Positions 9,126 through 62,833 of a stretch of DNA of 64,000 nucleotides are shown here, in pieces. This DNA is from Sphingobacteriales bacterium JAD_PAG50586_3 (lineage in GTDB: Bacteria > Bacteroidota > Bacteroidia > CAMBQF01). The stretch is taken from contig CP096135.1 in NCBI GenBank assembly GCA_023213195.1, positions 946,616 through 1,010,615 of the forward strand, in the 5' to 3' direction. Position numbers and translations under genes: made by a program. Position 1 is the stretch's first letter. Every line of letters starts with the position of its first letter. The notes beneath the pieces are model-generated. The model was given only the letters and a program-made list of their open reading frames with translations. It did no database searches and was not told where the DNA came from.

Positions 9126-11228
9126 TTAATGGAGTATTATACGGCCTAAGATACCCGATAATTCTATTTTAACGTTATCTAACGTGCGTTGTTTTTCAAG
9201 CAGCGCCATTTGGTCAAACTCTTCGGTGGCAGTGGCAAGCTCATCTTGCACCTCGCGTATCATCTTTAAAATAAACTTCATTTTAAGCGAGTGCAAGGCC
9301 TTTTCTATACTTTGTTTTAGCACTACGTGCGATGTTTCTTCGGTAGCAACCTCTATGCGGTGCTTGGTGTACCAACGCTCGCTAAGGCCACTTTTTCCAT
9401 TACAAGGTCGCTGGCTACGCTCCGCACATTCGCATCGGGGTGGGCAGTAGGTTCAGGCACTTCAGGCTTTTGAATATCCAGAAAACCTTCATCATCCAAC
9501 AACACATCAGGAGTAATAAAAGGCAAGGGCAGTTCATCATCGTCAAACTCTACGGCGGGAAAGTATTGCTCTTCGGGGTGGCTTTGCAACGCAACGTAGC
9601 CGGTGTAAATGGCTTGATAAACGGGGTTTTGCATCAGCACCTCGTCGCGAGACAGTTCGTAAACTATAAAATCTCCGGCCAAAACGGTATGTACTTCTTC
9701 GTGTCGGCCATCTTCCGTTTTATGGGTAAAATAGAGTACTTTATCAGAGTGGCGCAGTAGTATGCGTATAATGTCTCGCTCCTGCCATTCGGGGTCGCTA
9801 AAGTCAACGGCTAAAAGTTCCTAGTTTTTGCCTTGTTGCTGTTGGTCGTCGTACCCTTCGCTCTCATGCTCTACAAATGCCTCTTTCAGGTGTTCGGCCT
9901 CGCGCTCTTTTTGTGTTTTAGTATAGCGTAGCTTGTTAACCTCGCGCAATAGCGTTTGCTCGTCTATGCCCGTTAAGCGGCTGCACTCTTTTATATAAAA
10001 CTGGCGTTGTATACCTTCGGGGACAATAGAAATAGTATGGGCAAGGTCTTTTACTAATGCCGCACGCTTAATTGGGTCGTTGCCAACCTCATCAATAAGC
10101 AAACTGGTTTTGAAAGAAACAAAGTCCTTAGCCGACTTACCAATATATTCTTTAAGCTCATCTATGCTTACTTTTTTGGCATACGAATCGGGGTCGTCGC
10201 CATCTGGAAAAAGCACTACGCGCACGTTCATGCCCTCTTCCAAAATCATATCTATACCACGGAAGGAGGCTTTGATACCCGCAGGGTCTCCATCGTATAA
10301 AATGGTAATGTTTTTGGTATAGCGGCTGATTAGCTTTATCTGGTCGATGGTAAGGGATGTACCCGACGATGCAACTACGTTTTCTACCCCCGCCTGGTGC
10401 ATAGATATTACATCGGTATAGCCTTCTACCAAATAGCAAACATCAAACTGGGTAATGGCTTTTTTAGCAAAATAGGCACCATAAAGCACCCGGCTTTTGT
10501 TGTAAATCTCACTCTCGGGACTGTTTACATACTTGGCCTGTGTTTTATCGGCTGAGTTTAACACTCTGCCGCCAAAGCCCAGTACACGCCCCGTTAAGCT
10601 GTGTATAGGGAACATTACACGCCCCTTAAACCTGTCGAATTTTTTATTCTCTTCTACTTTAACAATAGAAAGACCTGTTTTGGCCAAGTAGTCTAGCTTA
10701 TAACCAGCTTTAACAGCGGCATCGGTAAAAGCCGACCACTCGTTAGGGCTGTAACCCAGTTGGAATTTCTCAATTATATCATCCCTAAAGCCCCGCTCGC
10801 GGAAATAGGCTATAGCCAATAGCTTTGCCATTATCACTCTCCCAAAGTTGCTCGGTAAAATATTTTTGGGCAAAGGTGTTAACTACAAAAAGGCTCTCTT
10901 TCTCGTTCTGTTGCTCAATATCTTCGGCAGTAAGCTCCTTTTCTTCAATTTCAATATTATACTTTTTAGCAAGATAACGCAGGGCCTCGGGGTAAGTGGA
11001 GTTTTCGTGCTCCATTATAAAGTTTACCGAGTTGCCCGCTTTGCCGCAGCCAAAGCACTTGTAAATGCCTTTTGTCGGCGATACAGTAAAAGATGGGCTA
11101 CGCTCGTTATGAAAAGGGCAGTTGCCCAACATATTGACACCACGGCGCTTAAGGGCAACAAAGTCGCCAACCACCTCTTCTATACGGGCGGTTTCAATAA
11201 TGCGGTCTACGGTATCTTTAGGTATCAT
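9126..11228 (-). CDS. dnaG: DNA primase DnaG, reconstructed from four ORF fragments: two single-base frameshifts (homopolymers near 10832 and 9390) and one in-frame TAG (9821-9823)
   Basis: CHC2 zinc ribbon (CPFHNERSPSFTVSPTKGIYKCFGCGKAGN), Toprim (ILYDGDPAGIKASFRGIDMILEEGMNVRVVLFPDGDDPD) and a helical C-terminal domain ending just before the AI-2E start. Frames rejoin if AAA becomes AA at ~10832 and A5 becomes A6 at ~9390. Confidence 0.75.
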
Positions 11229-22139: not shown

Positions 22140-22945
22140 CTTTTAAAATGCGCGCAAATATAGCGGTTTATTGTTTACTACAGTATTTAGTTTCCTTTTT
22201 AAGTCCCCCTCACTCCTTTAGGAGAGGGGGATTTAGGGGTGAGGGAAAGCCACTAAACCCCGCATCGCTGTAAATAAAAGAGCATGTTTTGGACCCTCGT
22301 TTTTAAACTCCCCTACTTTTTAAGCCTGCCCAGACACGAATGTCGTCAGGGGAGGGGTGGCCTTTAGGCCGGGGTGGTTACATCCCTAAAACCCGCATCG
22401 CTGCAAGATAAAGCGCACGTTTTGAACCCTCGTTTACCTCACCCAGCCGCACCCAATTTCCATTGGCTGCGACACCCTCTCCCGGCGGGCGAGGGTAAAA
22501 ACCGATAAGCCCCTCAAAATATCACCTATCTTAAAGCCACAGGGCTGTAAAATTTTTTTCAAAATGAACTTGACATTTTATATTTCTACAGTTTAAAACG
22601 TCCGATAAATCCTCCATCCCGTTTCTTTCAATTTTTGTCAAGTAGTTTACCCCAATTAAAGCCAAGGGGCTGTAAGAAAAAATTGCAAAATGAACCCGTC
22701 ATCCCGAACTTGTTTCGGGATCTATAAATTCACAGAAGCAACATCGAAAATGTAAAGTATCAGGCATAGTTTAGTTGTGCTTGCTAATGTCGACAATTCA
22801 TCTTCGGGACAATAGATTTTTCGTTTTTCATTGTTAGTTTTTAGTTTCCTACAAAGATACAACCCCAGGTACCCGTTTGTCAAGATTAACTTTTAAGTCC
22901 CCTGCTTTTTAAGGGGTAGCCTTTAGGCGTGGTGGTTACATCATT
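22140..22945. repeat. non-coding repeat island 1: mosaic of short dispersed repeat modules (R1, R2, R3) with GC-rich hairpins
   Basis: No ORF over 60 aa. Modules are shared with island 2 (47170-47975) and with 26690-26732. See findings. Confidence 0.6.
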
Positions 22946-22948
22946 TTT

Positions 22949-23575
22949 TTAGCTATTTGATTTGTAGGTAAATTTCAAATTTGCCCAATCTGTCTCAGCC
23001 TCAACTGAATAACAAATTCCATTAAGATATGCATAAGTAGTTTTATTTCCATTTGGTAAATACATTACATACCTATTGTTGCCAGCGTTTTTTATAGGTA
23101 TCATTCGTTGAAATTTTTCAGAAAAGATAGAGTTCACATTTACAGGTTCATAAAAATAAAGGCATGCAGTTGTTAAGAGTATGGGATTATTGATAAAACC
23201 GTTATGGCCATTTTTATCAAAGCAACTATAAAATCTTCCATTCCAGGTTATGAGATTATTTACTTCTACTTTATTATTTGTTGTTCGATATAATTTTGCC
23301 TCTTGCAAAATATTCTTATTAAATTTCACGCTCATCTTATCATAAAATTTTATATTAAATAACAAGAGGTTCACTCTTGCATTCGATTCAAAAAAATACT
23401 CTGTAACATCATTATTTGTACTTTTTATAATGTGTATTTCACCAATTGCTTCATTACCTTTTGTAATTGTGTAGGTTAGGTTCTTTCTGTTATTTATATA
23501 GCTTGAAGCTTCTGCGAATTGAAAATTCATAATGCAGATTAAAAGCAGGATTATAATGTTTTTTAATTGTCTCAT
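22949..23575 (-). CDS. hypothetical secreted protein (AT-rich)
   Basis: 208 aa with signal peptide. No recognisable motif. Confidence 0.4.
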   Translation of the reverse strand: MRQLKNIIILLLICIMNFQFAEASSYINNRKNLTYTITKGNEAIGEIHIIKSTNNDVTEYFFESNARVNLLLFNIKFYDKMSVKFNKNILQEAKLYRTTNNKVEVNNLITWNGRFYSCFDKNGHNGFINNPILLTTACLYFYEPVNVNSIFSEKFQRMIPIKNAGNNRYVMYLPNGNKTTYAYLNGICYSVEAETDWANLKFTYKSNS

Positions 23576-26630: not shown

Positions 26631-26832
26631 ATTTTATTACTTTGTGTTGCCGAACTTAATTTTTTCATTACGTATCATCGGGGTGAGGCCCTACAAAGAT
26701 ATAACCCACTACCCCTTTGTCAAGAATAAGTTCCGCTCTTTATTTAAATTAAACCCTTTACCCCCTTATCTGTTTGTGGTATTGCGCTCTGGCAATTGCA
26801 CGTTGCAAATGCCTACCTTTGCACCCTATATA

Positions 26833-35317: not shown

Positions 35318-35441
35318 TTTGTATATCTATCCCCTCTTGAGAGTGGTGCCAAATGAAATGAAGGCGGGGTGTGTTATTTTATAATCCCATCTTTATTTAG
35401 GGGGAATAACTTTTCCGAGAAACCCTAGGTTAATAGGTGTG

Positions 35442-46012: not shown

Positions 46013-46396
46013 CTAAAGCACCAACTCGGTAAACAGGCGCTCTGCCGTTTGGTTTAAGTTGTGGGTAATGCCCGGGTGTGGGCGCGATGTTTGTATGGCC
46101 GAACTGCGCACTGCTGTTAGCCACCTAAACCGCGATGGTACATCTAGTTCAGCAATAGGGCCGCAGTTGGCAGCACCCATGGCTATCTTCTCAAACGATT
46201 CTAAATTCAGCTTTACCTGGTGTATATCCAGCTCATCGCTAAACGATGCCAAGCGGGCTTCATTTAACTGGTATTTTACCGATATATATTTGGCGTTTTT
46301 GCAAAACAGCACTATGCCTACGTTTATAAACTCTTCCCTTTCTACCACGGGCAAAACGCGTATTACGGCATACTCATATAAGTATCTTTCTTGCAT
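46013..46396 (-). CDS. DUF3037 domain protein
   Basis: YLYEYAVIRVLPVVEREEFINVGIVLFCK matches the DUF3037 N-terminal core. Confidence 0.65.
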   Translation of the reverse strand: MQERYLYEYAVIRVLPVVEREEFINVGIVLFCKNAKYISVKYQLNEARLASFSDELDIHQVKLNLESFEKIAMGAANCGPIAELDVPSRFRWLTAVRSSAIQTSRPHPGITHNLNQTAERLFTELVL

Positions 46397-47168
46397 TTTG
46401 GGCTTCGTTAGTAAAAATTTCAGAGTTATTTATGCGGGTAATTAAAAATTGGTAATATACCTCCCTTGCTTGTTCGGCAGTTTCGTCAATGTCTTCGCGT
46501 TCCAACCATTCAGCGGGAATAAGATTAACCAACGCACGTATTTTATCTGCTGTTAATACCTGTTTAAATTCGGCATTTATTTCATCAAGCATACTGGCCT
46601 GTGGCAATAGTACGTGGTCTTTAATTAAGGCAAAAGGGCTTTTAGCATGCGTTTCCCAGGTTGTCCAGCTGTGGTGAAAGTATAGTGATGCGCCTTGGTC
46701 TATAAGCCACAGCTCCTTATGCCACATAAGCATATTGGTGTTTTTAAAAGTGCGGTCTATATTGGTAATAAAGGCATCTAACCATACAATAGCCGATGCT
46801 GTTTTAGCATCAACCGTAGTAACTACAGGGTCAAACGTTATAGCGCCCGATAGAAAGTGCATGGCGATATTAAGCCCCTGACTGCTTTTCAGCAGGTCTT
46901 GTATCTCCTCGTCGCCTTCGGTTTGGCCAAACGCTTCGTCCAGGTTAGCAAATACCAGTTCGGGTACTTTTAACCCCAGCAGGCGGGCAATTTCGCCACC
47001 CAGTAGTTCCGATATAAGCGCCTTTGGGCCATGGCCATTCCCTTTGAATTTAAGCACATACTTAAACCCATCGTCAGCCTCGGCCAGGGCCGGCAACGAA
47101 CCACCCTCGCGCAACGGCTGAATATAGCGCGTAACGTTAACAGTACGTAAATCAGAAACTGTAGTCAT
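46374..47168 (-). CDS. HipA-like kinase-domain protein (Ser/Thr kinase fold), overlapping its DUF3037 partner
   Basis: …ALISELLGGEIARLLGLKVPE…AIVWLDAFITNIDRTFKNTNMLMW… resembles the HipA_C catalytic region (DxHxKN-like). Confidence 0.5.
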   Translation of the reverse strand: MTTVSDLRTVNVTRYIQPLREGGSLPALAEADDGFKYVLKFKGNGHGPKALISELLGGEIARLLGLKVPELVFANLDEAFGQTEGDEEIQDLLKSSQGLNIAMHFLSGAITFDPVVTTVDAKTASAIVWLDAFITNIDRTFKNTNMLMWHKELWLIDQGASLYFHHSWTTWETHAKSPFALIKDHVLLPQASMLDEINAEFKQVLTADKIRALVNLIPAEWLEREDIDETAEQAREVYYQFLITRINNSEIFTNEAQNARKILI

Positions 47169-47169
47169 A

Positions 47170-47975
47170 ATCTGTTGCCAAATGTAGTTATTTTAACTTT
47201 TAAAGGTCTCCCTTTCCAAAGGGAGTGGCTGGCGCCTTGGCGCCAGACGAGGGATTTAATGTCGTTGTCAAAATCCCCGGCTCTTCGAGCCACCCCTTTA
47301 AAAGGGCGACCTAAACCCTTGCGGCTGTAAGATAAAGCACACGTTTTGAGCTCTCCTTCCGTACCCCCTCCTAACCTCGCGTTGCTCGGTTTCTCCTCCC
47401 CCTACTAATAGGGGAGGTGTCCGCCAGGACTGTGGGGGTAAGAAAACCCGCATGGCTGTCCCAAAGGGATGCCTTCGGCACAAGATAAAGCGTACGTTTT
47501 GAGCCCCAACTATATACCCTCTTGAGAGGGGTGGCAAAGCAACGCTTTGACGGGGTGTGTATTGTAACGTTCCAATCCCTACAGGCGGTAGTAAAATATA
47601 TCATTTCTGCTCATCGTTTTTTTTAACTCCCCTACTTTTTAAGGAGGGGTAATTCTGACTGGTAAGTCAGAATGGGGTGGTTACCTTAAACCCCTACAGG
47701 CGGTAGTAGAAAAATGTGTTTCTGCGCACCATTTATAGGTGCAAATACATGGGTTGACTTAAAGTAAAACTTTAACTCAAAAAATTTTAAAGATCTCCCT
47801 TTCAAAAGGGAGTGGATTCCGATGATAATCGGAAGACGAGGGATTTCGGCAGGCATTAGTTATAGTTTTTACAAAGATACAACCCCGAATACCCCTTTGT
47901 CAAATTAAAATATACACACTACATTAGAACACAGAAACACCTGCCTTTTATAGTATGTAACATGATACTGCAAAC
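47170..47975. repeat. non-coding repeat island 2: mosaic of modules R1 to R6
   Basis: No ORF over 80 aa. Shares R1, R2 and R3 with island 1 and R5 with 35326-35395. Internal duplicated R4 and R6 modules. Confidence 0.6.
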
Positions 47976-49076
47976 ATGAACAGAAAGACAATAATGATTA
48001 AAGTACTATTCTTTTTAAGCGTACTGGCTATTTTAACATCGTGTAACGGGCAAAATAAAAATATATCATCTAATACAGAAACCTTAAATGATTCAATTGC
48101 TGTAGGAAATACTGTAAATAAACTCGGTAACCATTTGTGGTATGTTTTTCAAGACAAAAAGAATAACTATTGGTTTGGAAGTAATGGTGAAGGTGTGTAT
48201 CGTTATGACGGAAAAACGATAGTCAATTTTACGACAAAAGATGGACTTGCAAACGACACTATAAGACAAATTCAAGAGGACAAATTTGGGAATATATTTG
48301 TTTCAACTTTCGGCGGTATCAGCAAGTTTGACGGAAAGACATTTGCTACTCTGCAACCAATCAAAAGCAAAGAATGGAAATTAGAACCTAATGATTTGTG
48401 GTTTTATATATTGGGTAAAAAGAATGAGGGTGCTTATCGCTACGATGGCGAAAACCTATACAATTTAGAATTTCCTCAACACTATCTTCACGATGAAATT
48501 TATCCACGAGTTGTCAATTCGTTTTTTAGTCCTTACGAAGTGTATTCTATTTATAAAGACAGAAAAGGGGCAATGTGGTTTGGCACTTCAGTTTTTGGAG
48601 CTTGCCGTTTTGACGGAGAAACAGTAAAATGGATGTACGAAGACGATTTGACCTATGTACCTAATGGGGGCACTTTTGGCATTCGTTCCATTTTTGAAGA
48701 TAAAGAAGGCAGCTATTGGTTTTGCAATACGCGGCACCGGTTTGTTTTTGACTTTGACAAAACAACAAAAAGCGACAGGCTTCAATATCAAAAAATTGAT
48801 GGAATTGGAAACGCAAAAATCTTTGGTGGAGATGAATACATTTACTATTCATACATTTTAGAAGATAATAAAGGGAATATTTGGTTAACCACCTGGGACA
48901 AAGGAGTGTATAAATATGATGGATCTGCTATTACAAATTATTCAGTTAAAGATGGTTTAAAAGACGTTAATTTAGTTTCAATGTACAAAGATAACCAAGG
49001 CAACCTATGGCTTGGAACACCAGAAAACGGAGCATTTAAGCTTAATGGTAATACATTTGAAAGATTTAAACCATAA
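47976..49076 (+). CDS. lipoprotein composed of two-component-regulator propeller (Reg_prop-type) repeats
   Basis: Lipobox LTSC. Repeated units of the form GNIWLTTWDKGVYKYDG, YWFGSNGEGVYRYDG, MWFGTSVFGACRFDG, LWLGTPENGAFKLNG. Confidence 0.55.
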   Translation: MNRKTIMIKVLFFLSVLAILTSCNGQNKNISSNTETLNDSIAVGNTVNKLGNHLWYVFQDKKNNYWFGSNGEGVYRYDGKTIVNFTTKDGLANDTIRQIQEDKFGNIFVSTFGGISKFDGKTFATLQPIKSKEWKLEPNDLWFYILGKKNEGAYRYDGENLYNLEFPQHYLHDEIYPRVVNSFFSPYEVYSIYKDRKGAMWFGTSVFGACRFDGETVKWMYEDDLTYVPNGGTFGIRSIFEDKEGSYWFCNTRHRFVFDFDKTTKSDRLQYQKIDGIGNAKIFGGDEYIYYSYILEDNKGNIWLTTWDKGVYKYDGSAITNYSVKDGLKDVNLVSMYKDNQGNLWLGTPENGAFKLNGNTFERFKP

Positions 49077-49230
49077 CAAAAAAGTAAAGGCAACCACTAA
49101 GTTAAAAGGGAGTTTTAACCCTTTGCCGTGGTTGGTGTTTAGCACAGCGTCACCAACCACTAAATTATACTAAGTTTTCTTTCAAATCCATTTCCTTTTC
49201 GTTAGCTTTCGGTTTCTTAAATCGCTCACA

Positions 49231-62780: not shown

Positions 62781-62833
62781 CAAGCCTTTGTATGTAACAG
62801 ATCCTGAAACTAGTTCAGGATGACGTGAACAGG

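Follow-up and report, generated by a model that had tools for sequence, protein, structure and literature searches.

The 64,000-nucleotide stretch of contig CP096135.1 analyzed here (the window; positions 946,616 to 1,010,615 in assembly GCA_023213195.1 of Sphingobacteriales bacterium JAD_PAG50586_3) holds an intergenic segment crowded with short repeats, repeat island 2 (47169-47975), located between the divergent genes for a HipA_2-like kinase and a Reg_prop protein. Two copies of a module with two hairpins, R4, lie in the island, and an earlier note on this DNA had taken them as evidence for a structured element family, selected as RNA or DNA, because the second hairpin differed between the copies and was self-complementary in both. 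Our results indicate that R4 is likely a composite palindromic DNA repeat, in which a repetitive extragenic palindrome (REP) of the CGTC type is nested within a second hairpin repeat, and that it is part of a mosaic array like the Neisseria intergenic mosaic elements (NIMEs) and bacterial interspersed mosaic elements (BIMEs). The membership of the family, the paired changes in the stems, the CGTC tag with its tail, and the presence, absence and swapping of modules between genomes are the direct observations on which this reading is built.

The two flanking copies reported by the earlier note are present on the plus strand, copy 1 at 47198-47257 and copy 2 at 47785-47846. Copy 1 consists of TTTTAAAG, hairpin A (hairpin 1; 47208-47214/47219-47225), TGG, hairpin B (hairpin 2; 47229-47235/47240-47246) and ACGAGGGATTT; in copy 2 hairpin A is at 47795-47801/47806-47812 and hairpin B at 47817-47823/47828-47834. 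The two copies do not differ in hairpin A, CTCCCTT/AAGGGAG, or in the flanks TTTTAAAG and ACGAGGGATTT; their 5' 31 nt are 94% identical (BLAST E 1.4e-7 within the window), and their final 3' 13 nt (AGACGAGGGATTT) are identical, in agreement with the conservation described for the first hairpin and outer sequences. Hairpin B is CTGGCGC/GCGCCAG in copy 1 and TTCCGAT/ATCGGAA in copy 2. Both stems are perfect, as had been claimed, but they are not completely different in sequence: 3 of the 7 stem positions are common and four stem pairs differ. R4 folds equally well on either strand. A diverged R4-like copy lies on the minus strand at 47271-47316, in which hairpin A is CCCTT/AAGGG and hairpin B is GGCTC/GAGCC; its covariance-model E-value was 0.1-0.18 with a first model and 1.5e-8 with a broader model itself partly built from that copy. 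Copy 1 and this inverted copy make up a head-to-head pair that can fold as one long hairpin like a REP doublet forming hairpin (REPIN), with DNA fold z scores of -5.7 and -4.6.

Further members came from other genomes. A scan with a strict R4 pattern, run on a collection with one genome per species in which the window's genome was not included, gave two copies, both in one Lake Mendota metagenome-assembled genome (MAG). One, L001, lies 3' of obg and has the hairpin B stem TTCCGAC/GTCGGAA; the other, L002, lies 3' of csp and has TTCTGAC/GTCAGAA. Both stems are single compensatory steps away from that of window copy 2, which is more similar to L001 (93% identical over 70 nt) than to window copy 1. 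With a covariance model of these four copies, four diverged members were found (47271-47316 in the window, L055 3222-3277, L054 2631-2684 and L054 14925-14985), so that the family has eight members, spread over the window and contigs of at least three related lineages. Among the four original copies, double-sided changes occur at 5 of the 8 hairpin 2 pairs, a number that none of 500 shuffles equaled. In the model-fitted alignment of nine rows, 97.5% of 118 pair cells pair and double-sided changes are found at 10 of 15 pairs, five of them in hairpin A; no one-sided changes or G-U pairs were seen among the 118 cells. These paired changes indicate that the structural constraint is real and acts on both hairpins, and the constraint is symmetric between the strands. 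The structure-preserving variation proposed by the earlier note is therefore confirmed by further copies for hairpin 2 and extends to hairpin 1. When both hairpins were left unconstrained, a metagenome scan gave three matches, all chance matches within coding sequence, and the single match to R4 in viral contigs was likewise due to chance, in G+C-rich coding DNA.

The minus strand of R4 reveals what hairpin B resembles. REPs of the CGTC type are defined by an unpaired CGTC at one end, with variants TGTC and CCTC, followed by a stem of 8-9 bp whose first two pairs are A/T, a loop of 4-5 nt and a short unpaired 3' tail that is mostly CCA (PMC3733652). They have been reported in Bacteroidetes and include the Neisseria dRS3 and Rickettsia RPE-4/-6 elements; their families are sequence types with paired stem differences, present in tens to thousands of extragenic copies per genome, and they have no dedicated transposase or known mobilizing enzyme (PMC3733652). 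Head-to-head is their predominant dimer type, and they are sometimes nested in other small palindromes (PMC3733652). All canonical R4 copies read, on the minus strand, CCCT-CGTC-(7-bp stem)-(4-nt loop)-(stem)-N-CCA-CTCCC, copy 1 being CGTC-TGGCGC(C)-aag-(G)GCGCCA-G-CCA and copy 2 CGTC-TTCCGAT-tatc-ATCGGAA-T-CCA. CGTC stands immediately 5' of the stem in both window copies, L001, L002 and L055 3272. The first two stem pairs are T:A and T:A in 4 of these 5 tagged copies and T:A and G:C in window copy 1; the loops (tatc, tatc, tgcc, tgtc and caag/aag) are within the 4-5-nt range; and the four canonical copies end in the 3' tail (T/G)CCA, L055 in GCCT. Like the canonical copies, the diverged L055 copy has a 7-bp stem and a 4-nt loop. 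By a rough estimate, CGTC and CCA would both stand beside a hairpin by chance about once per several thousand cases. The head-to-head arrangement is represented by one pair, 47198-47257 with 47271-47316. The GTAG tag of other REPs is absent from R4.

Classical CGTC REPs are also found in the window. One is in repeat island 1 at 22697-22725 on the plus strand (CGTC ATCCCGAA cttgt TTCGGGAT); a second, at 62797-62825 on the minus strand (CGTC ATCCTGAA ctagt TTCAGGAT), differs by one compensatory pair change. The consensus is CGTC ATCCYGAA N5 TTCRGGAT, that is, an 8-bp stem starting with A:T and T:A, with loops cttgt and ctagt in the copies at 22697 and 62825, and the ends are CT(A/G). In IMG/VR contigs this REP was matched 46 times, and the flanks of these matches are unrelated. 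At the variable stem pair, 40 unique copies had T:A in 28 cases, C:G in 11, a mismatch in one and G-T in none, which argues that paired variation of the stem is a generic property of REPs.

Two other modules, R2 and R5, share the plan of R4, in which a hairpin whose 5' arm is rich in C and whose 3' arm is rich in G is followed by T(G/A)G, a variable hairpin and a second G tract. R5 (47511-47580, plus strand) has CCCTC/GAGGG, TGG, the variable hairpin CAAAGC/GCTTTG and ACGGGGTGTGT, and reads CGTC-AAAGC-gtt-GCTTT-G-CCA on the minus strand; further copies are at 35326-35395 and L055 11023-11074. R2 (47619-47690, plus strand), which has R4 architecture, consists of TTTTAACTCCCCTACTTTTTAAGGAGGGG, a variable hairpin ATTCTGACT/AGTCAGAAT and GGGGTGGTTAC, with further copies at 22296-22392 and 22885-22952. 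A broader covariance model, for which the eight R4 members were used, matched R2 (E 3.9e-5) and R5 (E 3e-3). Elsewhere the base module occurs without hairpin B, for example as TTTTACCCCCCTTAGAAAAAGGGGGGTCGGGGGGATTT in L031 and L039, in arrays where classical CGTC/TGTC REPs are present as well. Further, the R2 of island 2 carries ATTCTGAC/GTCAGAAT, the hairpin B stem of the L002 R4. On the strength of the common plan, the base modules without hairpin B and this stem match, we take hairpin B to be a REP that is nested in a slot of another small repeat. Part of the covariation between the window copies would then reflect different REP types occupying the slot rather than point compensation in one RNA. 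The possibility that the G-rich direct repeat around hairpin B is a target duplication was rejected, since both G tracts are already present in base modules that lack hairpin B. TTTAA flanks, considered as a possible target duplication of R4 itself, were seen in 3-4 of 7 R4 copies and in none of the diverged members, and a filled/empty pair of sites shows at most TAA.

Comparison of syntenic sites showed that these modules are not fixed to their loci. In the relatives L007 and L009-L016, whose HipA is 87-88% identical and whose genes are 78-87% nucleotide-identical to the window, about 122 nt separates hipA from a Por_Secre_tail gene, and island 2 is absent. The lineage-specific segment, island 2 plus the low-GC Reg_prop gene (47188-49174, no strand), replaces about 47 nt of the relatives' syntenic site and is missing there in all relatives examined. 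Different modules occupy the obg 3' site: R4 in L001, where an additional Por_Secre_tail gene comes next; an unrelated module with a hairpin in L054, whose DNA is 93-95% identical; and R5 in L055. The csp-dnaN slot holds R4 in L002 and, at precisely the same place, another module with two hairpins in the conspecific L058 and L059 (DnaN 99% identical); L056 (DnaN 84% identical) has no module there. L054 has an R4-like copy between a glycosyltransferase gene and asnB, two operon genes, where L055 has a 13-nt spacer. Thus the content of the arrays differs between related genomes at syntenic sites, and REP-type palindromes are interleaved intergenically with several other repeat families, both of which are features of NIMEs and BIMEs. 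Locus swapping, presence/absence and the head-to-head pair point to mobile or exchangeable repeats, not to a locus-bound regulatory RNA.

The mechanism that we propose is as follows. R4 would be a composite of about 60 bp, in which a base module, the CTCCCTT/AAGGGAG hairpin plus a second G-rich tract (GAGGGATTT), carries a CGTC-tagged REP between its two G tracts; R2 and R5 would be sister modules on the same plan. The modules would accumulate, singly or head-to-head, in mosaic intergenic arrays at junctions where relatives differ in their genes. It would be the hairpin, not its sequence, that is maintained, presumably because a structure-specific enzyme, either similar to a REP-associated tyrosine transposase (RAYT) or another recombinase, acts on it as a hairpin of single-stranded DNA. 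Intrastrand templating or correction by gene conversion could be an alternative or additional cause of the paired stems. Different REP sequence types could take the same slot, the arrays could act as recombination hot spots that admit accessory genes such as the Reg_prop gene, and transcribed hairpins may secondarily stabilize or insulate mRNAs.

Several observations weigh against a composite CGTC REP. An exact CGTC is missing from three diverged R4 members, where CTCC or CCCG stands instead, and the R4 stems are 7 bp, compared to 8-9 bp in the published CGTC families. A six-frame motif search of the 64-kb window for the HUH + Y motif of Y1 transposases and RAYTs found none. The alignment used for the pair counts was fitted to the structure of the model, which favors pairing, and the search for copies was confined to 64 kb of CP096135.1 and about 0.2 Mb of related contigs. 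Finally, flanking transcription is unambiguous in five contexts, and in all of them R4 is oriented in sense with the neighboring gene, as would also fit a role at the RNA level.

The strongest alternative is that of a structured RNA, either cis-acting or small, in which selection acts on both hairpins at the RNA level; R4 might then be a 3'-end stabilizer or insulator, a leader element, or a switch in which the C tract pairs with one or the other of the two G tracts. Besides the sense orientation, it would account for structure-preserving variation in both hairpins and for the high identity of the unpaired flanks, 93% between window copy 2 and L001 when genes of the window and L007/L009 are 78-87% identical. 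The G-rich tail also varies jointly with hairpin A across subfamilies, and for REPs in general it has been proposed that they are transcribed and work as hairpins in RNA. Given the sense orientation and the unusually conserved unpaired flanks, R4 may have some RNA-level role. As a full account of R4, however, we regard a structured RNA as unlikely. When the window was searched with the Rfam 15 covariance models, only two tRNAs reached the gathering score; nothing in island 2 did, where the best E-value was 0.25. The lack of G-U pairs among the 118 cells and the equal folding of both strands are not what an RNA would lead one to expect, and R4 is replaced at the same locus in conspecific strains and close relatives. 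A promoter-like -7 box separates R4 from the downstream gene in three cases, so that R4 would be outside that mRNA, and both window copies are between divergent genes. Together with the CGTC tag and CCA tail of hairpin 2, these results speak against the structured RNA of the earlier note. Its broader wording, RNA or DNA secondary structure, fares better: the hairpins are indeed kept by paired changes, and the DNA-repeat option is the one that the evidence favors, but nothing singles out RNA.

A second alternative, that R4, R2 and R5 are recombination sites of a cassette-type system, similar to attC, that inserts single accessory genes for secreted or type IX secretion system (T9SS) proteins between genes, draws on the position of some copies. 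Of the eight members, three are in sense with, and 49-130 nt upstream of, accessory genes missing in relatives (the Reg_prop gene of the window and Por_Secre_tail genes in L001 and L054), the breakpoints of inserted segments are about 10-20 nt from R4, and conserved ends around a variable but structured center recall the logic of attC. Yet each gene is flanked by one R4 rather than by one per side, L002, L054 14925 and window copy 1 have no adjacent cargo, and the R4 ends, TTTTAAAG and GAGGGATTT, lack the attC core sites RYYYAAC and GTTRRRY. REP arrays beside variable genes are known in Neisseria without a cassette mechanism. The cargo genes beside R4 share no homology, and no integrase or recombinase was seen, with none integrase-like beside island 2; because the genes are unrelated and no recombinase is in view, we consider a cassette system very improbable. 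If it were true, it would be an undescribed system of gene insertion, here in freshwater Bacteroidota.

Two further candidates were rejected as hardly credible. The direct orientation of the copies near both ends of island 2 could recall the direct-repeat scar (target duplication or long terminal repeat) of one insertion of about 590 bp, but this is refuted by solo R4 copies in unrelated contexts in other genomes, and window copy 2 is closer to L001 than to copy 1, with four hairpin 2 stem pairs different, while the lineage-specific segment is 47188-49174 and not R4-to-R4. G+C-rich stems in intergenic DNA of an unpolished assembly with frameshifts might also be intrinsic terminators or nanopore assembly artifacts; as terminators they have no T run (TGG follows hairpin A and ACGAGGG follows hairpin B), and a terminator scan gave one match when 1.7 were expected, and as artifacts they would not recur in independent assemblies, as the modules do in the L001/L002 MAG and in the JGI and Logan contigs L054 and L055.

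We turn now to the island as a whole. The HipA_2-like kinase gene is at 46374-47168 on the minus strand and the Reg_prop gene at 47976-49076 on the plus strand; genes near the island encode T9SS sorting domains, consistent with Bacteroidota. The Reg_prop gene has 29-40% G+C compared to 42-53% in its neighbors, and it is probably a recent acquisition at the repeat array. Island 2 folds far more stably than its shuffles, with z scores of -6.2 and -6.6 on the two strands, and it contains at least 17 perfect hairpins of at least 5 bp. Its inventory is two R4 copies, the R4-like copy, two R1 copies, R5, two R6 copies, R2 and a promoter-like repeat; that of island 1 is two R1 copies, two R2 copies, one classical CGTC REP and a promoter-like repeat. 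In the whole 64-kb window there are two R4 copies, one R4-like copy, three R2, two R5 and two classical REPs, every one of them extragenic.

The R1, R5 and R6 repeats of island 2 were all located as the earlier note had described. One R1 copy (47310-47359, plus strand) is related to 22253-22302 and 22386-22435. The other (47440-47507, plus strand) has a 22-23-nt insertion made up of the mini-hairpins tcccaaaggga and tgccttcggca. Single copies of R1 (47440-47507) and R2 (22325-22354) carry extra inserts of 22-30 nt that are one or two mini-hairpins, so hairpin nesting within modules is recurrent. R6 is found at 47574-47619 (copy a, CCCTACAGGCGGTAGTA...TTTCTGC) and 47689-47734 (copy b), both on the plus strand. 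It holds CTAC-AGGCG-GTAG followed by a weak hairpin, with a conserved TTTCT arm used in different registers in each copy; the GTAG could mark a GTAG-type REP living beside the CGTC type.

In another module, TCCCCCTCACTCC-ttta-GGAGAGAGGGGGA-TTTA-GGGGTGAGGG, present at 22203-22247 in the window, L054 2505-2545 and L031 8680-8720, the C tract can pair perfectly with the first G tract as a 12-bp hairpin or, in another register, with the second G tract (CCCTCAC/GTGAGGG). This three-tract layout is also present in R4. The csp terminator at L002 3116-3150, AAAATCCTCTGAC-gta-GTCAGGGGATTTTTT, has a CTGAC/GTCAG stem and a GGGATTTT end in common with the R4 that follows it, so that terminators and REP-like modules may be related in this lineage.

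The promoter-like repeat of island 2 is at 47870-47903 on the minus strand and can be read as TTGACA-N18-TATCTT and also as TTG-N21-TAtcTTTG. It is 34 nt long, with copies 85-88% identical at 22850-22883, 26692-26723, L054 2580-2613 and L055 3155-3189; the minus strand has TTG-N19-21-TAtcTTTG followed by the A-rich AAAACTAAAA. The copy at 47870-47903 has what we take to be the -33/-7 shape of Bacteroidetes promoters, and from its sequence the repeat looks like a promoter of that type plus a leader. In 4 of 5 cases it points into 430-700 nt of repeat island before any gene; at 26692 it is 55 nt from a start codon. The repeat could be a mobile promoter module, or it could drive transcription of the islands.

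L055 (2730-3801) and L054 (1947-2732) have repeat islands of their own, 0.8-1.1 kb long, at a synteny breakpoint with pheT or an ars-like cluster on one side and a GFO_IDH_MocA gene on the other, and these islands hold a TGTC ATTCCTGC gaaa GCAGGAAT element and other CGTC/TGTC-tagged palindromes. The closest HipA relative by bit score (551, compared to 587 for the self-match) is in L006 (9567-10273), where the synteny is unlike that of the window; the hipA call has an N-terminal extension that brings it to 355 aa, with three tRNA-like sequences a short way upstream (about 9650-9910).

The genome is a nanopore-only, unpolished R9.4.1 Flye assembly with evident frameshifts. In the window, rpoD (about 34530) has an in-frame stop and icd (about 20990) has a frame shift at an A run (...GKKK...); homopolymer or base-calling errors in the assembly are the most likely cause of both. 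Runs of C, G and T within the repeats may therefore also be one base off.

If R4 is a nested CGTC REP, then CGTC-based arrays of the NIME/BIME type would also occur in an uncultivated order of freshwater Bacteroidota (AKYH767). We found no earlier description of them for this group in the literature searched, and searches on these REP sequences and on Bacteroidetes REP arrays returned nothing relevant. Where such arrays lie, the gene content of close relatives differs. The arrays break short-read assemblies, and covariation alone is insufficient ground for annotating a novel RNA within them. The filled, empty and swapped sites between near-identical strains might help to find the enzyme that handles CGTC REPs.

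How R4 compares with known systems can be put as follows. Integron attC sites resemble R4 in having conserved ends, a structured center of variable sequence and a position at accessory-gene borders; unlike them, R4 has no core sites, integrase or cassette array, and many copies are without cargo. REPINs and the GTAG REPs of RAYTs share with R4 an inverted pair foldable as a long hairpin and an insertion polymorphism that points to mobility, but R4 lacks GTAG, no RAYT was found in the window, and CGTC REPs have no known dedicated RAYT. NIME arrays consist of CGTC-type dRS3 elements (CGTC-1 REPs) interleaved with other repeats, are dynamic between strains and lie next to variable genes (PMC3733652 for dRS3). 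Island 2 is like NIMEs and BIMEs in its intergenic mix of REP-type palindromes with many short repeat families, in content and length that differ between strains at syntenic sites, and in its position next to variable or acquired genes; it differs in belonging to another phylum (an uncultivated AKYH767/Sphingobacteriales lineage), in its unrelated module sequences, and, from NIMEs, in having no regular dRS3-RS-dRS3 periodicity. R4 differs from CGTC REPs in its 7-bp stem, in one spacer base before CCA, in the CTCC or CCCG of the diverged members, and in the fixed place of its REP within a larger conserved module that has a second, almost invariant hairpin. R4 shares with CGTC REPs the unpaired CGTC, the 4-nt loop and the CCA-type tail and, in four of the five tagged copies, two A/T pairs at the stem foot, as well as extragenic location, paired stem differences, head-to-head dimers, nesting and the lack of an associated transposase.

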